The position numbers were made by a program, and so were the translations under genes. From the IMG/VR virus record IMGVR_UViG_3300032030_000143: a stretch of 44,759 nucleotides of DNA; one strand, given 5' to 3'. Shown one piece after another: positions 3,438-26,272 of this stretch (positions are counted from its first letter, which is position 1; each line of letters begins with the position of its first letter). The DNA is from a virus. Under the pieces are notes generated by a model. It saw only the letters and a list, made by a program, of their open reading frames with translations. It searched no databases and was not told the origin of the DNA.

Positions 3438-3562
3438 GGCGGTGAGCTCCCTTGAAATGATATACAGGGAGCAAAAAAGTTCTTGACAAGCTATAAAACA
3501 TCTGCTATAATCTTAAGTGTCAAAGGGGTTAAGAAAGCCCTTGATTGAAAGGAGAAAAGAAA

Positions 3563-13450: not shown

Positions 13451-13518
13451 AATGGAGCCTTGTCCTACTAAAAGGCTTTAGAATCTGGTAGGTAAATCTT
13501 TTGAAAGAGGTAGATACT

Positions 13519-18771: not shown

Positions 18772-19482
18772 ATGGACAAAATGTATGTGTTAGTTCTGGA
18801 CGTAGAAACCGCTGGTGATGTTGAAACCAACCCTCTTGTCTATGACATTGGGGCTAAAATTGTTGATCTCACAGGCAATGTCGTGGAATGTGGGAGCTGG
18901 GTAATCTATGACATTTATACTCAGCGTGATCTCATGGCTTCTGCTTACTATGCTGCAAAATTGCCGCAGTATGAACATGACATGGCAAATGGCACCCGCA
19001 AGATGGCACGCCTTGAAACTGTCCGCAAAATTATTTGGAAGTGGATGTTCAAGTATAATGCTTTTACCGTTGCCGCTTACAATGCTTCTTTTGACCGCAG
19101 GGCCCTCAACAACACTGTCCGTACTCTTGGCATGGGTAGTTATTTCTTTCCCTTTAAGGCTGAATTTATCGACATTTGGCGGATGGCTTGTCTGTCTATT
19201 TGTATGATGAAAAGCTATCATCAGATGGCGTATGAAAACGGCTGGTATAGTGATGCTGGCAATATCCGTACAAATGCTGAAACTGTGTATAGCTTTCTCA
19301 CAAATGCGCCTGATTTTGAGGAATCTCATACTGCCCTTGAAGATGTCGATATTGAAACGGAAATTATGCTTTACTGTTGGAAAAAGGTAAAAGCGCAAGA
19401 CCGTGGCATCGTTGGCAATCCGTGGAAAATCCCGCAAAAAGAATGGATTTTTCATGAAGCAAAGTTCGATGAAATTATTTAA
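18772..19482 (+). CDS. DEDDh-family 3'-5' exonuclease (DnaQ-like), paralog 1
   Basis: Exo motifs LDVETAG (I), AYNASFDRRAL (II) and HTALEDVDIE (III); ORF track; canonical terminator at 19487-19518. Confidence 0.8.
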   Translation: MDKMYVLVLDVETAGDVETNPLVYDIGAKIVDLTGNVVECGSWVIYDIYTQRDLMASAYYAAKLPQYEHDMANGTRKMARLETVRKIIWKWMFKYNAFTVAAYNASFDRRALNNTVRTLGMGSYFFPFKAEFIDIWRMACLSICMMKSYHQMAYENGWYSDAGNIRTNAETVYSFLTNAPDFEESHTALEDVDIETEIMLYCWKKVKAQDRGIVGNPWKIPQKEWIFHEAKFDEII

Positions 19483-20226: not shown

Positions 20227-20325
20227 TTCCTCATTCGCCCGGGCGCCAGATTGTTAAATAAATAACTATTAAAAAAGGTATTGACTTTTCGCTAAAAGAG
20301 AGTATAATAATAATTGTTAAGGGGA

Positions 20326-20590
20326 GGGGCTCCCAAAAAAACAAAATCGCCTGTGGGATTTAACTGGCGACCTGATAAAAAAAATTCTTGAAACAAAGAA
20401 AAACCCCTTGACAAGCTCCACTTAATGTGGTATAATGAATACAGTTAAGAGGGCGGTGGAAACCACGATACGCACCGTTTGTGCTGATGAAAGAAACAAG
20501 CCCGAAAAAAATTTCAAAGAAATTTGAAATCCCTCTTGACAAACCCCACAAGCTGTGGTACAATAAGTATGTAAGGTAAAGAGAAAACGA
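20326..20590 (+). ncRNA. array II of short promoter-driven non-coding transcripts
   Basis: Consensus promoters at 20281-20325, 20406-20442 and 20540-20575 with no ORFs or RBS between them. Confidence 0.35.
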
Positions 20591-20657
20591 ACGGAGCCTT
20601 GTCCTACTAAAAGGCTTTAGAATCTGGTAGGTAAATCTTTTGAAAGAGGTAGATACT

Positions 20658-21047
20658 ATGGCTAATTCTGCTACTGATCGCAAGCCCACCAAGCGTGACC
20701 ACTTCAATCGGCTTTACACCATCGTGCAGGAGGGTTCTTATCCCGATGCTGACGAGCTGATGGGCTTTATTGAGCACGAGCTGGAACTGCTCGATAAGAA
20801 GAACTCCGGTGAGAAGAAGCCCACCGCCAAGCAGGTCGCTAATGCGGCTCTGGGTGAGGCCATTATCGGCTGGATGGAGCCCAATACCCTCTATCTGTCT
20901 GCCGAGGTTGCCAAGACTTGCCCCGCTGTCATTGACGCGGGTGCTACTCAGGGCACTGTCACCGCTATCTTGACCCAGCTTTACAAGGCTGGCAAGATTG
21001 TCCGTACCGAGGACAAGCGCAAGAACTATTACTCTCTCGCAGAGTAA
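20658..21047 (+). CDS. hypothetical protein, paralog family B (129 aa)
   Basis: ORF track frame, start at MANSATDRKPTKRD; conserved leader at 20594-20657. Confidence 0.7.
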   Translation: MANSATDRKPTKRDHFNRLYTIVQEGSYPDADELMGFIEHELELLDKKNSGEKKPTAKQVANAALGEAIIGWMEPNTLYLSAEVAKTCPAVIDAGATQGTVTAILTQLYKAGKIVRTEDKRKNYYSLAE

Positions 21048-21088
21048 TAGTCCCCTGCAAGGGGGAGAATAATCTCCCCCTAATCTAT

Positions 21089-21164
21089 GCGGGCATAGCT
21101 CAGATGGAAGAGCACTTGACTTTTAATCAAGGGGTCGGGGGTTCAAATCCCCCTGCCCGCACCA
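21089..21164 (+). tRNA. tRNA-Lys (anticodon UUU), CCA encoded
   Basis: Anticodon stem-loop CTTGA/CTTTTAA/TCAAG; T-arm GGGGGTTCAAATCCCCC; acceptor GCGGGCA/TGCCCGC. Confidence 0.85.
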
Positions 21165-21310
21165 CTAATTTCCCATCTCCTTTCTGTCTTTTGGCGGTTC
21201 CTACCCTATGGGTAGGAATTGCGCCCGGGCGAATTGTTAAATAAATAACTATTAAAAAAGGTATTGACTTTTCGCCAAAAGAGAGTATAATAATAATTGT
21301 CAAGGGGAGA

Positions 21311-21909
21311 AAGAAAACAACCTCTCTCAGGCGTGTAACCTGATGTAAGTAAAATCAAATCTCTTCAAAAAAATGGAAAAACCCCTTGACAGACTCACAG
21401 GTTTGTGATATAATGGATACAGTCAAGAGGGAGAGCCGAGAGTTGAAAAACATCGCCAAGGCTCGAAAAAAAATAAAAAAAATCTCCAAAACCCTCTTGA
21501 CAAGACCACGAACCTGTGGTATAATGATTATGCCATCTACCCATCTGCGTAGGGTAGTGAGGGGGACGCAGACCCCAAGAAGCGAGCAACGGCTTACAGA
21601 GAGCGCTGGACTCCGCGCCCATCGAGGCGGGAAGTGCTGGTAGAGCAGGGGACACCAGACGCCAGAACACAAGGGCATGTGGAATGGCAACACTTTTCCT
21701 GTATTGATTTGTCGGTTTTTAAGTAAACCTTCCGCAGTTTTGGACTGTTATAAGTTCTGCGTAAATAAAAACTTGCAAAAGAAATGGGTAAAGGCGTTGA
21801 GCGTGTATGTCTACCCCATTAAAAACGCTACAAAGGGTTTTACGGCAGGAGACCTATATAGGGGTGAGAAACCTATTCCCCTAATTTATAAGCGCGTGTA
21901 ACTTAAAAT
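21311..21909 (+). ncRNA. array III: short transcripts plus about 380 nt of GC-rich non-coding leader preceding the tRNAs
   Basis: Promoters at 21265-21310, 21378-21412 and 21496-21530. Track ORFs in this stretch overlap on both strands and lack RBS. Confidence 0.3.
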
Positions 21910-21986
21910 GGTGGGGTCTTCCAATCGTTTAGGATATGCAGTTAGTAGCTGTAAGATGGTGGTAATCGACTAATCCACCCCGCACC
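21910..21986 (+). tRNA. irregular tRNA-like element (possible tRNA pseudogene or non-canonical tRNA)
   Basis: Acceptor, D-like arm and anticodon-like arm (TGCAG/TTAGTAG/CTGTA) can be drawn, but the T-region GGTGG-TAATCGACTAAT-CCACC has a 12-nt loop. Confidence 0.3.
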
Positions 21987-21992
21987 TATCAT

Positions 21993-22079
21993 GGCCCCTT
22001 CTACTAATTGGATAGGTAATCAGGCTTTCAACCTGAAAATGGTGAGTTCAAACCTCCCAGGGGTCACCAATAATATCCT
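21993..22079 (+). tRNA. tRNA-Glu (anticodon UUC), CCA encoded
   Basis: GGCCCCTTC... start typical of tRNA-Glu; anticodon arm TCAGG/CTTTCAA/CCTGA; T-stem has one U.C mismatch. Confidence 0.6.
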
Positions 22080-22232
22080 CTCTCCTTTCTTTCCCTCCTT
22101 TCTCTTTCGGGCTCTACCACTTTAATGTGGTAGAGTTCCCGCCCGGGCGATTTGTTAATGTTTTAACACAGCTTGACAGGAAGAAAGAAAGATGCTATAA
22201 TATAATCACCAAAAGGAAAGGATTTTGAACAA

Positions 22233-22463
22233 ATGAAAGAAAAGATTTTGGCTTGTCTTAATCGTTATCCCGGAGCCCGCAAACGTGAAGTTGCCACAGA
22301 AATTCATTGCCCTGTAAATGGTATATTTCTTCATAGCTTTAGCGAGCTGGAAGATATTGGTTTTATCCAGCATGTTACTATTAATGATCCTGCGAATATG
22401 GAATTTTATGATAAATGGTACTTGACAGATGTCGGGTATCGTGCTATAATGAATGTAGACTAA
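22233..22463 (+). CDS. small winged-helix-like protein (76 aa)
   Basis: ORF track; promoter at 22170-22205; AAAGGAAAGGAT RBS; C-terminal WYLTDVGYRAIM resembles 26273-26443. Confidence 0.6.
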   Translation: MKEKILACLNRYPGARKREVATEIHCPVNGIFLHSFSELEDIGFIQHVTINDPANMEFYDKWYLTDVGYRAIMNVD

Positions 22464-22482
22464 AAGGAAGGGGGAAACACTA

Positions 22483-22899
22483 ATGGCAAAAATTACATTG
22501 ACTGAAAAAAATATTGCCGATTACATGAAGCGGAATAAGTGCAATCGTGAAGAAGCTATCGAACTTATCAACTATGATAATGCGATAGAGGGCGGCGAAG
22601 AAACTGAATATGACCTTAGCCCTGAGCAGGTAAAAGTCGTGCAGGAAATGAACCGCAAGATTGACCATGCGAAGCCCACCACTATTAAGCGGGAGCGCAA
22701 GCCGAATGAATTGAAAGAAGCTCTTGTAGCCGCACTTGCGGACTTCCTTGAAAATACTTGCGAATTTGAAATGAAAGACAACGGGGTTATTTATTGTGGT
22801 GATGTAGAAATTACCAACAAAAACCGTATGATTCATTTCACTTGCAAAGACAAGGAATTTGACCTCCAGCTTATTGAAAAGCGGGCAAAAAAGTCCTAA
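22483..22899 (+). CDS. hypothetical protein (138 aa), paralog of 5818-6177
   Basis: ORF track; promoter embedded at 22418-22455; GGAAGGGGGAAA RBS; terminator hairpin at 22900-22920. Confidence 0.65.
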   Translation: MAKITLTEKNIADYMKRNKCNREEAIELINYDNAIEGGEETEYDLSPEQVKVVQEMNRKIDHAKPTTIKRERKPNELKEALVAALADFLENTCEFEMKDNGVIYCGDVEITNKNRMIHFTCKDKEFDLQLIEKRAKKS

Positions 22900-23418
22900 A
22901 TAGGCGAATCCCCGAACTTTTCGGGGCAATTCGCCCGGGCCATTTGTTAAATAAATAACTTATAAATAGATATTGACAACTACCCCCAATCCTGTTATAA
23001 TATAATTGTTCCAAGGGAAAGCAAGAAAGTGACTGAGTCTGTTAGATTTGAGTCTGCGAATGGGTGCACACATTCATGATTCGTTCCTCAGCCAGTCGGT
23101 CAACCTTGTGGAAGCTTCTTACCAAGGAACATTCTCTGGGTAGGATTTGCTACCCTACCCATACAAATTTAATATAGGGAAGACGTAGGAAAGGAGTTAG
23201 TAAAACATGGTTTTACTACTGCGTTTACCGCATCTTTGACACTTCTGCGGTGTTATAAATTTTGAGACACTACCCACCTATTGGTACGGTGGGCGAGTGC
23301 CCGGGCGCAAAGATTGTTAAAAATTTAATTATTAAAAAATCTATTGACTTTCTGCCGAAAAAGAGTATAATAATAATTGTCCAAAGGATAAAAAATAAAA
23401 AAAGGAAGAATAAAAAAA

Positions 23419-23820
23419 ATGAAGTGTGCCGCAGAATTGATTATGATGAAGAATAAAGCAGTTGAAGCCCATAATGCCATTGTTAATGCTAAATACGAAG
23501 AGATGGTTGCGAATGCGATTAATCTTTGTGAGACAACTATTAACGATGCACTTACTAAAAAGGCGGAAGACAGAGAGCTTTTGAAAGTTGCGTATTGGGT
23601 TGGAACTTATACAGATGAACTTGGTCATGAATTTTTCCGCTTTGGTGCACATCGTACACATTTGATTTCATCTCAGCCAGCTTATGCTATGGAGCCTTTT
23701 ATTGATTATCTTCATAAGTTTTGCCTTGAAGTAAATATAGGTGAGGCGGATGGAAGTGGAGATAGAAAACTCACTGTCTACGTTCCAAAGAAAGATGATA
23801 ATAGAATCTGTGGTGTGTAA
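23419..23820 (+). CDS. hypothetical protein (133 aa)
   Basis: ORF track; promoter at 23345-23390; AAAGGAAGAAT RBS. Confidence 0.65.
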   Translation: MKCAAELIMMKNKAVEAHNAIVNAKYEEMVANAINLCETTINDALTKKAEDRELLKVAYWVGTYTDELGHEFFRFGAHRTHLISSQPAYAMEPFIDYLHKFCLEVNIGEADGSGDRKLTVYVPKKDDNRICGV

Positions 23821-23930
23821 GGGGAGTTAATCTTCCCTAACCGCCCGGGCGGATTGTTAAATAAATAACTTTTAAAAAAGGTATTGACTTTTCTGTAAAA
23901 ACGAGTATAATAATAATTGTTAAGGGGAGC

Positions 23931-24335
23931 GGTAAAGAGTGAGAACAAGCGCTGACCGCGAAAAAAAATAAACTATACTAGGATGGGAAAACCCCTTGAC
24001 AAGTCCCACAAAGTGTGGTATAATAAAGATGTTGATAGGGAAGAGCCGAGCAAGGACGCAATTTGGACGGTGCGCGCGTGAAAAGCTACTGCCTATGGCT
24101 CAATAAAAAAAATAAAAATATTTCCTAAACCCTATTGACAAAACCACATGCCTGTGGTATAATAAGTATGTAAATAAGGGCGAGCAGGTTGAGTAGCCCC
24201 CCTAGGGGGCAAAAGTTAAATGGGGGGTTCGATTCCCCCCACGCCCCCAAAAAAAATAAAAATGGTCTTGACAAAAGCTTAAACCTATGATATAATAAGT
24301 ATGTAAGCAAGAGGGAGTTGAAAATCCCCTGCTAA
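23931..24335 (+). ncRNA. array IV of short promoter-driven transcripts, including a tRNA-like element
   Basis: Promoters at 23884-23930, 23996-24032, 24133-24168 and 24269-24300 with no ORFs. Confidence 0.35.
24178..24249 (+). ncRNA. tRNA-like element without a D-arm, carrying a CUA-containing GC hairpin
   Basis: Acceptor-like pairing GGGCGAG/CACGCCC (6 of 7 bp); canonical T-arm GGGGGG-TTCGATT-CCCCCC; GC hairpin GCCCC-CCCTAGG-GGGGC with CTA at 24202-24204; own promoter. Confidence 0.35.
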
Positions 24336-24401
24336 TAAAAGCCTTGTCCTACTAAAAGGCTTTAGAATCTGGTAGGTAAAAAAACGAAAGAGGTAGATAC
24401 T

Positions 24402-24782
24402 ATGGCTAATTCTGCTACTGATCGCAAGCCCACCAAGCGTGACCGCTTCAACGAACTGCTCGGCATTCCCGCCGTGGCTGAGAATGAGGATCTGGTTGAG
24501 TTTATCAATCACGAGATTGAACTGCTCGACAAGAAGAACACCGCGGAGCGGAAGCCCACTGCTAAGCAGGTCGCTAATGAGGGGTATAAGGCAGCCATTC
24601 TCGGCTGGATGGAGCCTAACCACCTGTATCTGGCGGCTGAGATCGTCAAGGGGTGTCCCACTATTGTGGAAAACGGTGTCACCGCTGGCACTGTGACCGC
24701 CCTGCTGACCCAGCTTTATAAGGCTGGCAAGATTGTCCGCACTGAGGACAAGCGCAAGAATTATTACTCCCTTGCGGAGTAA
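24402..24782 (+). CDS. hypothetical protein, paralog family B (126 aa)
   Basis: ORF track; conserved leader at 24336-24401; about 70% identical to 20658-21047. Confidence 0.7.
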   Translation: MANSATDRKPTKRDRFNELLGIPAVAENEDLVEFINHEIELLDKKNTAERKPTAKQVANEGYKAAILGWMEPNHLYLAAEIVKGCPTIVENGVTAGTVTALLTQLYKAGKIVRTEDKRKNYYSLAE

Positions 24783-24823
24783 TAATTCCCCCATGGGGGA
24801 TAGGTAAATCCCCCACCCTATAC

Positions 24824-24897
24824 GGGCGTGTAGCTGAGGGGTTTAGCAATAGGCTGTTAACCTATGGACGAAGGTTCGAGACCTTCCACGCTCGCCA
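24824..24897 (+). tRNA. tRNA-Asn (anticodon GUU), CCA encoded
   Basis: Acceptor GGGCGTG/CACGCTC; anticodon arm ATAGG/CTGTTAA/CCTAT; T-arm GAAGG-TTCGAGA-CCTTC. Confidence 0.8.
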
Positions 24898-25079
24898 CTA
24901 CTTCTCTTTTTAGTCTCCTTTCTTTCTCTCCTTTCTTTTTCCCCCTTTGTGGGACTCTACCACTTTAATGTGGTAGAGTCTCCGCCCGGGCACTTTGTTA
25001 AAACCTTAACAAAATAAACCGCTTGACATAATTCCAATAGTATGTTATAATTTTTATAGTAAAAAATAAGGAGCGTTAA

Positions 25080-25289
25080 ATGATGGCGGATAACCCTGTG
25101 TCATGGTTTTTCCTTACCGTAATTGGTATTTATTTTATTTGTCGCTTTTTTAAAAAAGTTATTGATGAAAGCGAACGCCTAAAAGCAGAAAGAGAAAAAG
25201 CCTGTCAAGAAATTTTCTTTGAAAATTCTCTTGACAAAACGAACGCTATGGCGTATAATAGATTTATCAACAGGAGGGAAAACAAATGA
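25080..25289 (+). CDS. small protein with N-terminal TM helix (69 aa)
   Basis: ORF track; promoter at 25021-25058; AAGGAG RBS; the 3' end contains the promoter for the next gene. Confidence 0.55.
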   Translation: MMADNPVSWFFLTVIGIYFICRFFKKVIDESERLKAEREKACQEIFFENSLDKTNAMAYNRFINRRENK

Positions 25290-25990
25290 ACTACATGATG
25301 ATTGATACTGAGACTACTAATAGTCTTGATGATCCCCTTGCCTACGATGTAGGTTTTGAGGTCTTTAATCGTGACGGTAACACTATTGAAACGGCATCTT
25401 TGACTAACAAAGATTTGTTTCTTGATAAAGATTTTATGTCCACCGCTTACTATGCCGAAAAAATTCCTAACTATTGGAAAGAGATTTGGGCAAAAGAGCG
25501 TGAACTTTTGACTTGGCGAGAAATCAAGTGGAGAGTGTTTGATGCTTGTAAACGGAACAATTGTCAGATTGTGGCGGCCCATAACGCTATGTTTGACAAT
25601 CGGGCATTAAATCTGACCCAGCGTTATATTACTACCAGTCAGCACCGTTATTTCCTGCCGTATGGTGTAACTTGGTGGGACACTCTAAAAATGGCTCGTG
25701 AAGTCCTCGGCAAAGATGAAACTTATGCACGATTTTGTGAATACTTTGGATATACCACTGCAAAAGGTAAGCCCCGCTTTACCGCTGAAATTGTGTATAA
25801 ATACATTAGCGGGGATATAGATTTTGAGGAACGACACACCGGCCTTGAAGATGTCAAGATAGAAAAAGATATTTTTCTTTACTGTCTTGACCGTGTTCCC
25901 GACATAGATGGGCGGCTTTGGAAACCGAAGCCGGAGCCGCCCCGAAAAATGGAACCTTGGGAAATCGAATTACAAGAATTACTTGCATAA
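25286..25990 (+). CDS. DEDDh-family 3'-5' exonuclease, paralog 2
   Basis: Motifs IDTETTN, AHNAMFDNRAL and HTGLEDVKIE; ORF track; CAGGAGGGAAAA RBS. Confidence 0.8.
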   Translation: MNYMMIDTETTNSLDDPLAYDVGFEVFNRDGNTIETASLTNKDLFLDKDFMSTAYYAEKIPNYWKEIWAKERELLTWREIKWRVFDACKRNNCQIVAAHNAMFDNRALNLTQRYITTSQHRYFLPYGVTWWDTLKMAREVLGKDETYARFCEYFGYTTAKGKPRFTAEIVYKYISGDIDFEERHTGLEDVKIEKDIFLYCLDRVPDIDGRLWKPKPEPPRKMEPWEIELQELLA

Positions 25991-26004
25991 AGGAGAATAA
26001 AAAA

Positions 26005-26151
26005 ATGAAATACTGTGTTACTCTTGGTTATGAAGTTGAAGTGGAAGCCGACACCCGCGAAGAAGCCATGGACGCCGCTGTCATGACTTTTAGTGAAGAT
26101 ACACACCCCAATGTGTATATAGCATTCATCGACGAGCTGGAAAATGAATAA
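26005..26151 (+). CDS. small acidic hypothetical protein (48 aa)
   Basis: AAAGGAGAAT RBS; coupled to the upstream gene. Confidence 0.5.
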   Translation: MKYCVTLGYEVEVEADTREEAMDAAVMTFSEDTHPNVYIAFIDELENE

Positions 26152-26272
26152 TTTTCCAGCCGCCCGGGCGTTTTATTTCAAAAATTTTAAGTAATTTCGG
26201 CACTTGACAAATAGCTCCTTTTGTATTATACTATAATTGTTCCAAGAGATAAGAAGAAAGGAAGTAAATAAA

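Follow-up and report, generated by a model that had tools for sequence, protein, structure and literature searches.

Does a TAG-recoded jumbo phage encode its own reader of TAG in an unusual tRNA-like gene? This question is raised by a 72-nt element on the plus strand of IMGVR_UViG_3300032030_000143, at positions 24178-24249 (all coordinates refer to the window, that is, the whole 44,759-nt stretch analyzed). The initial annotation described a promoter-driven tRNA-like element with a CUA-containing hairpin and offered two interpretations, an amber-suppressor tRNA or a tRNA mimic. Our analysis favors the latter: with a probability of about 0.6, the element specifies a tRNA-derived, non-decoding tRNA-like small RNA that mimics the top half of a tRNA. 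The mimic interpretation is supported by an acceptor/T-arm module, a 3' CCA, conservation at the level of tRNA genes, and the location of a homologous copy (contig L012) within a tRNA operon.

The acceptor-type stem combines GGGCGAG (24178-24184), invariant in all three sequence variants of the element, with CACGCCC (24240-24246). The pairing previously proposed between these strands forms at six of the seven positions, position 6:67 being a conserved A.A mismatch (A24183 versus A24241). The proposed T-arm was recovered as GGGGG-TTCGATT-CCCCC (24223-24239), with a 5-bp stem and a loop of the TTCRANN type. The combination of a T-arm with an adjacent 7-nt acceptor pairing occurs at six sites in the window versus 0.8 expected, and four of the six are the element and three annotated tRNAs. 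The annotation was mistaken in stating that CCA is not encoded: CCA directly follows the acceptor stem (24247-24249), with no discriminator base before it, and the L012 homolog ends in A-CCA.

The remainder of the element departs from a tRNA. An 11-nt linker, CAGGTTGAGTA (24185-24195), is 100% identical in the three variants and stands in place of the D-arm; its GG could play the role of G18-G19. It is followed by a GC hairpin, GCCCCC-CTA-GGGGGC (24196-24210), which folds into a 6-bp stem with a 3-nt loop and carries CTA at its apex (24202-24204), and by a second linker, AAAAGTTAAATG (24211-24222), whose core AAGTTAAATG is invariant in the variant alignment. The minimum free energy (MFE) fold, at -34.7 kcal/mol and with a modest z-score of -2.28, consists of the closing acceptor-type stem, the 6-bp hairpin with its 3-nt loop, and the T-arm. 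Folding returned the tRNA-like acceptor/T-arm structure that had been anticipated, but with its central loop closed. The 7-nt loop CCCTAGG drawn in the annotation does not persist, since two C-G pairs close within it (probabilities 0.95-0.96) and leave a 3-nt CUA loop; opening the hairpin to 7 nt would cost 6.2 kcal/mol, corresponding to an open fraction of ~4e-5. CTA thus does occupy the hairpin apex, as had been noted, but not an open 7-nt anticodon loop. The claim that there is no room for a D-arm holds for the MFE fold with its 11-nt linker, although a mini hairpin GGTT/AGCC (4 bp, 4-nt loop) is possible in a fold less stable by 4.5 kcal/mol (-30.2 versus -34.7 kcal/mol). No D-arm with a 3-4-bp stem and a 7-11-nt loop carrying G18 and G19 was found.

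By standard tests the element is not a tRNA. ARAGORN found four tRNAs in the window (Leu-UAA, Lys-UUU, Glu-UUC, and Asn-GUU) and made no call at the element, and Rfam at gathering thresholds (29 bits for the tRNA model RF00005) listed the same four only. The relaxed and organellar searches recommended with the annotation gave nothing further: the window copy was called neither by Rfam nor by ARAGORN in its default, lowered-threshold (-ps80), intron, metazoan-mitochondrial (D-arm-less), or tmRNA (-m) modes. The sole match in the permissive (E-value) mode of Rfam was local, covering the 17-nt T-arm with 16.7 bits from the tmRNA/tRNA clan. At default thresholds of the metazoan-mitochondrial mode, the window copy and the copy in contig L001 were not called, and the L012 copy was called as a "D-loop mtRNA" with a 4-nt anticodon, gctt; the element does not fit the D-arm-less (mitochondrial-type) models of ARAGORN/ARWEN, which include a 7-nt anticodon loop.

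Several other assignments were tried and rejected. The L001 copy was read as tRNA-Pro(GGG) by relaxed ARAGORN, but this fold depends on a weak, mismatch-containing A-U stem, and the window copy cannot adopt it. A tmRNA domain is excluded by G3-C70 in place of G3.U70, by a length of 72 nt with no reading frame, by an RF00023 score of 16.7 versus the gathering score of 47 bits, and by the lack of any call with ARAGORN -m. An attP-type tRNA 3' fragment does not explain the presence and pairing of both acceptor strands; no integrase was seen among the neighboring genes examined, and no match was found in 185,579 bacterial and archaeal genomes. Finally, no Y-RNA-type Rfam family matched the region 23800-24450 up to E=10, and a Y-RNA-like (YrlA) assignment was dropped.

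Exact and degenerate patterns were scanned over IMG/VR, JGI metagenomes, and the 185,579 genomes, and returned only a 239.6-kb contig and L012, the other matches being ordinary tRNAs or unrelated. The GenBank phage collection, searched for near-identity and at the protein level, gave no homolog. The JGI metagenome pattern scan was not exhaustive and does not prove absence, as it missed the element-bearing contig L150 (JGI Ga0247610_10488314). From the contigs of 11 neighbor-protein homologs came one more L012-type copy and two window-type copies, each identical to its type, the rest being arrays that lack the element; a covariance model built from the three variants and run over ~330 kb of family loci brought up neither another copy nor a paralog. 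All three variants lie in related phage contigs. The window type is unchanged over its 72 nt in contigs L147 and L150, and because these come from two further samples, the element is no assembly artefact. The second variant (L001/L013, the 239.6-kb contig) has the hairpin GCCCC-UCUAU-GGGGC and a second linker one A shorter, and is otherwise identical. The third (L012/L118) is located between tRNA-Leu(UAA) and tRNA-Lys(UUU) in a tRNA operon and has no promoter of its own; it is preceded by the same hairpin-plus-"tat" leader as the neighboring tRNAs and ends in GCCC-A-CCA, with a proper A73-CCA. Its T-stem reads GAAGG/CCTTC versus GGGGG/CCCCC elsewhere, two pairs being changed on both sides, and its hairpin region reads GCCC-CUGCUUAA-GGGC. 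The 8-nt CUGCUUAA is complementary to the conserved UUGAGUAG, and with the acceptor stem enforced the L012 RNA prefers an 8-bp hairpin with a CCC loop (-26.6 versus -19.5 kcal/mol). As a separate observation on the L012 operon, a tRNA gene on its minus strand (~1250-440) is apparently interrupted by an insert with an HNH-endonuclease open reading frame (ORF), and the 3' end of this tRNA (GGTTCGAGTCCC...ACCA) resumes past that ORF.

Comparison of these copies, as the annotation had advised, fits selection on the acceptor/T-arm body and the linkers, not on an anticodon. The window and L012 copies of the element share 85% identity, similar to tRNA-Lys (88%) and tRNA-Leu (92%), with the 60-nt flanks on each side at the random level; the anticodon arms of the two tRNAs are identical between these genomes. 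The DNA surrounding the element is ~90% identical between the window and L001, and the element differs at three positions, all in or beside the apex, with 0 changes in the 57 positions outside it. Two of the three differences correspond to a U.U in L001 and a C-G pair in the window, which closes the window loop further. The variants do not differ in positions 1-23, in the AAGTTAAATGG linker, in the T-loop, or in the acceptor strands. The expected conservation thus holds for the acceptor, linkers, and T-loop but fails for the apex, the most variable part of the element, which differs in all three variants: CUA in the window, UCUAU in L001, and CUGCUUAA or the alternative CCC triloop in L012. 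Only the four basal pairs of the hairpin are conserved. Because the apex differs in every variant and L012 prefers its 8-bp alternative, the central hairpin is, by this comparison, plastic in sequence, in loop size, and even in register.

The element is best seen as a remodeled tRNA gene. Its acceptor and T-arm are closest to the tRNA-Asn(GUU) of the same phage family (GGGCGTG...GAAGGTTCGAGACCTTCCACGCTCGCCA), and are also near the tRNA-Phe of these phages. The L012 apex CUGCUUAA equals the Asn anticodon loop CUGUUAA plus one C.

We propose that the RNA would keep the coaxial acceptor/T-arm module and the 3' CCA of a tRNA, with the conserved 11-nt linker in the place of the D-arm and, instead of an anticodon arm, a stable hairpin whose apex can vary freely. 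Its transcription would fall to the sigma-70 RNA polymerase of the host, acting at the consensus promoter described below, and, by analogy with tRNA biology, RNase P together with 3' trimming or CCA repair would excise it as they do a tRNA. Judging from the conservation pattern, the mature RNA would read no codons and would instead offer its acceptor end and elbow to a tRNA-binding factor. The role that we prefer, speculatively, is to titrate or divert a host factor whose targets are the acceptor ends or elbows of tRNAs; a tRNA-directed defense enzyme would be one example. Phage tRNAs are known to counter tRNA-targeting defenses (PMC11555353), and a counter-defense decoy is attractive because the distribution of the element is accessory and hot-spot-like.

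Several facts weigh against this proposal. CUA is kept at the apex in both jumbo-phage variants (window and L001), a retention that the mimic interpretation leaves as coincidence or shared ancestry, and the CCA of these two copies lacks a preceding discriminator base. Covariation is thin, with two pairs in three variants and 60 of 500 shuffles equaling the observed value. Moreover, the window T-stem GGGGG/CCCCC is that of tRNA-Lys and the L012 T-stem GAAGG/CCTTC that of tRNA-Phe and tRNA-Asn, and the T-stem difference could stem from gene conversion with neighboring tRNA genes and not from independent compensation. Among the neighboring genes examined, no tRNA-acting enzyme was recognized.

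By comparison of syntenic loci, the element is an accessory cassette, present or absent among genomes that are >90% identical. It is absent from the syntenic arrays of five contigs (L110, L111, L115, L116, and L117) and from the tRNA-Leu/tRNA-Lys spacer of two relatives of L012 (L124 and L127). Contig L115 carries cassettes 1 and 2 of the window and then the last promoter, so that exactly the promoter-plus-element unit is lacking, and L110 has another insert of ~90 nt in its array. In the arrays with other content, the neighboring winged-helix protein is 93-96% identical. Contig L001 joins the element cassette to cassettes that the window carries in its array at 20.2-20.6 kb. The repeated ~40-bp promoters would be obvious substrates for such shuffling of cassettes.

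The element must also be viewed against the genetic code of the phage. TAG recoding downstream of the element, as reported in the annotation, was confirmed by 16 in-frame TAGs in homology-supported ORFs. In a 249.7-kb relative with 91-94% identical DNA, the genes are called with TAG as a sense codon; in the stretch compared, all 36 genes end in TAA or TGA and 12 of the 36 have in-frame TAGs. In the window ORFs aligned to these genes, TAG stands in frame at least 16 times, mostly at codons where the relative has it too, and always within 31664-44759 (31700, 32728, 32854, 33122, 40224, 40820, 40886, 41003, 41171, 41981, 44043, 44193, 44364, 44541, 44547, and 44685); the one at 41981 falls midway along a 537-aa protein that is conserved across hundreds of phage contigs. 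A reading of TAG as Gln (code 15) fits, because relatives have CAG, CAA, AAG, or GAA at the TAG codons. In relatives of the L012-type phage, too, TAG is never a stop and in-frame TAGs are present. The family is TAG-recoded and therefore needs a TAG decoder. One recoded window protein is of interest by itself: an 815-aa protein (33107-35554) with an in-frame TAG at codon 6 combines Major Vault Protein shoulder and repeat domains (PF11978, 2e-20; PF17795, 1e-8).

No canonical tRNA-CUA was found in the window, where ARAGORN and Rfam detected the Leu, Lys, Glu, and Asn tRNAs only, as the annotation had stated, nor in 30 kb of the 249.7-kb genome and ~33 kb of the 239.6-kb genome, together covering about a fifth of a genome of ~250 kb. 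The same holds for contig L113, which reaches a Leu-tRNA cluster 8.5 kb past the window end, and for five further pieces of the 239.6-kb contig; an IMG/VR scan for that Leu-tRNA cluster found nothing. At the syntenic site of the 249.7-kb TAG-recoded relative (L110 and L113, ~30 kb of the genome read), the element itself is absent. Since L110 belongs to this genome type, has in-frame TAGs, and lacks the cassette, its TAG decoding is independent of a copy at this locus.

The amber-suppressor interpretation has to be judged on this background. It supposes a non-canonical, D-arm-less tRNA whose hairpin opens on the ribosome and whose CUA inserts an amino acid, probably Gln, at TAG codons, and we consider it highly improbable. 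It draws on the 16 in-frame TAGs, on relatives whose genes never end in TAG and in which TAG alternates with CAG, CAA, AAG, and GAA, and on the failure to find a canonical tRNA-CUA in the window or ~60 kb of relatives. The element is, in addition, tRNA-derived, has a CCA and a strong promoter of its own, lies in a standard-code region, and keeps CUA at the apex in both jumbo-phage variants, with a U before it in L001 (C-U-CUA-U-G). The anticodon arm argues otherwise. In neither the window nor the L001 copy does CUA fill positions 34-36 of a 7-nt loop that is open and carries U33 and, at 37, a purine: the window has a triloop closed by six G-C pairs, with C instead of U at 33 and the opening cost of 6.2 kcal/mol given above, and L001 has the 5-nt loop UCUAU with U at "37", whose opening costs 4.7 kcal/mol. 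The apex is the least conserved part, being CUGCUUAA or a CCC triloop in L012, whereas the anticodon arms of true tRNAs are invariant; the element is rejected by the bacterial-relaxed, intron, and metazoan-mitochondrial modes of ARAGORN and by the Rfam tRNA model; and the cassette is missing from the same site in close TAG-recoded relatives. By established identity rules, GlnRS relies on the anticodon together with G10, G73, and a weak 1:72 pair, and GluRS on an augmented D-helix; the element, with G1-C72, C or A at 73, and no D-arm, would lack these Gln/Glu identity features. On these grounds the suppressor half of the annotation was not upheld. Its most specific form, an aberrant D-arm-less suppressor with a short anticodon stem, derived from tRNA-Asn, driven by a strong host-type promoter, and working in the L001 form C-U-CUA-U-G, seems to us equally improbable. 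If true, it would exemplify the non-canonical suppressors suspected by Borges et al., who could detect a suppressor tRNA for TAG in no more than 40% of the genomes of TAG-recoded phages, a finding that counts in favor of the suppressor interpretation.

Two further explanations dispense with any function of the RNA. In one, which we regard as unlikely, the fold would act as RNA-processing punctuation, a cut signal for RNase P or a 3' endonuclease that separates read-through transcripts of the upstream tandem promoters from the downstream mRNA, the excised RNA having no role. RNase P needs no more of a substrate than the acceptor/T-arm module, the central hairpin is free to vary, and the four tandem promoters (23884, 23996, 24135, and 24268) are followed by no plus-strand terminator before the ORF at 24402. 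Yet conservation is strictest in the two single-stranded linkers, which are dispensable for RNase P, the L012 copy lies among tRNAs that already supply cleavage sites, the promoter at 24268 gives the downstream genes an mRNA of their own, and most relatives do without the element. The other explanation, to our minds similarly unlikely, is a decaying tRNA pseudogene or recombination scar, that is, a functionless tRNA-Asn-like gene without D- and anticodon arms that is carried between repeated promoters. The closeness of acceptor and T-arm to the phage tRNA-Asn, the sporadic distribution with cassettes shuffling between repeated promoters, the silence of tRNA finders, and the commonness of partial tRNA genes in prokaryotic and phage genomes (PMC9897764) would all be in keeping with decay. 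Decay does not agree, however, with the 85% identity across lineages with unalignable flanks, similar to that of functional tRNAs, or with 0 of 57 changed positions outside the apex between window and L001 when the flanks differ by ~10%. Furthermore, the T-stem is still paired after four substitutions, both acceptor strands are retained together with CCA or ACCA, and identical copies exist in three samples.

A non-decoding mimic, the interpretation that we prefer, has partial counterparts among known RNAs. The tRNA-Asn(GUU) of the family (24824-24897) shares with the element the GGGCG.G / C.CGC.C acceptor strands, the T-arm, the encoded CCA, and the location in tRNA modules or operons. Compared with canonical phage tRNAs, the element has neither a D-arm nor a 7-nt anticodon loop, its variable hairpin being flanked by linkers of 10-11 nt, and it scores below the RF00005 threshold without an ARAGORN call. 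The tRNA-like domain of tmRNA (RF00023) resembles it in the 7-bp acceptor, a D-loop-like single strand with GG, the T-arm, the CCA, and a helix replacing the anticodon arm, and the sole Rfam match of the element is indeed to the tmRNA T-arm. In contrast to tmRNA, the element has G3-C70 and not the defining G3.U70, and it has no mRNA-like domain, tag frame, or pseudoknots. Mitochondrial tRNAs that lack the D-arm, such as metazoan mt-tRNA-Ser(GCU), likewise have an acceptor and a T-arm with a short loop replacing the D-arm, but they possess a 5-bp anticodon stem, a conserved 7-nt loop, and specialized mitochondrial factors, whereas the loop of the element measures 3, 5, or 8 nt.

Non-decoding tRNA-like RNAs matured by tRNA-processing enzymes include mascRNA of the eukaryotic MALAT1 transcript and, from the tRNA cluster of phage T4, the stable RNAs C and D. 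The shared concept is a tRNA-shaped RNA within a longer transcript or tRNA cluster that matures through RNase P and CCA addition and whose anticodon region is not conserved; the architectures differ, and no sequence relationship is to be expected. Another such case is YrlA, a bacterial and phage Y-RNA-like non-decoding mimic of the tRNA acceptor, T-arm, and D-arm that is handled by tRNA enzymes (Chen et al., 2014; PMC4201824). Unlike YrlA, the element has no Y-RNA-type Rfam match (E<=10) and no long Ro60-binding helix, and it ends in CCA; no Ro60 gene was seen among the neighboring genes examined. Non-decoding tRNA-like RNAs and partial tRNAs in phage tRNA clusters are thus already known as a kind. 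The particular architecture of the element (acceptor/T-arm, two invariant linkers, a free hairpin, CCA, and a consensus promoter of its own) is not represented by any family in Rfam, and the only place where it was found is a single group of uncultured jumbo phages. Separately, an ~80-nt sequence, CACCTCCCCAAGGTTGAGTAACGGTAAGGCCGACTCTTTATGGCAAAGACGGAACAGGTTCGAATCCTGTCCTGACTAC, with a canonical T-arm recurs in many unrelated viral contigs (L014, L016, L021, L022, and >30 other IMG/VR loci) and may represent another unusual tRNA or tRNA-like family.

Upstream of the element, the promoter reported in the annotation is a plus-strand sigma-70 promoter (24135-24163) with a 12/12 consensus match: -35 TTGACA (24135-24140), a spacer of 17 nt that ends with TGG and includes the extended -10 TG at 24155-24156, and -10 TATAAT (24158-24163). 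L001 has the same arrangement upstream of its copy. Transcription is predicted to start near 24170, within the discriminator region and short 5' leader (24164-24177; from the -10 to the element the sequence reads aagtatgtaaataa). A leader of ~8 nt (GUAAAUAA) would be transcribed before G+1 and would need removal, presumably by RNase P. This promoter is nothing special to the element, because the surrounding 6 kb contains 11 perfect promoters (20-26 kb, that of the element included) and 27 promoter-like sites, compared with 11.6 +/- 3.8 in shuffles. The A-run that follows the element (24250-24262) also supplies the promoter that comes next (24268-24296), whose TTGACA begins at 24268, with its A-rich upstream region. 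No plus-strand terminator was found between the element and the ORF at 24402 or the tRNA-Asn at 24824, suggesting that the element is co-transcribed with the downstream winged-helix gene and tRNA-Asn.

The region 20281-26230 as a whole is very promoter-dense, its 11 perfect TTGACA-17-TGnTATAAT promoters being often arranged in tandem and spaced by non-coding inserts of 70-110 nt, each of which ends in a closing stem and an A-run. The content of the inserts varies between genomes that are >90% identical, and the promoter cassettes appear to shuffle between them. Two promoter-driven segments of this region have no convincing ORF and no Rfam family match, namely ~300 nt at 23002-23300, conserved in L110 (3410-3700) and L111 (5440-5740), and ~460 nt at 21530-21990, which runs into tRNA-Glu. 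A 41-nt 5'-UTR (untranslated region) motif, AGCCTTGTCCTACTAAAAGGCTTTAGAATCTGGTAGG, occurs at 13456-13496, 20595-20635, and 24340-24380 and in L001 at 3505-3545, directly 5' of the ribosome-binding sites of three small genes, of which two code for PaaX-like paralogs of the winged-helix type. The motif contains the interleaved stems GCCTT/AAGGC and CCTAC/GTAGG, which would make an H-type pseudoknot; one L001 copy has GCTAC/GTAGC with both sides changed, and the motif may be an autoregulatory leader. The genes downstream of the element encode a PaaX-like winged-helix protein and a DEDDh exonuclease-like protein; as they carry no tRNA-enzyme signature, a functional link between the element and nearby proteins was rejected. 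The DEDDh-type exonuclease-like proteins form a pair of paralogs (18772-19482 and 25286-25990; phrog_20187 and phrog_192, "DNA polymerase exonuclease subunit"), both encoded directly downstream of a promoter/tRNA module.

How TAG is decoded remains open for most TAG-recoded phages, and any CUA-bearing tRNA-like gene in such a phage is worth testing. The element described here is very unlikely to be the TAG decoder of its phage. It appears instead to be an uncatalogued, conserved, anticodon-less tRNA mimic carried on an optional promoter cassette. If it acts as a decoy, a mimic of the acceptor end and elbow only would be a new twist on phage counter-defense.

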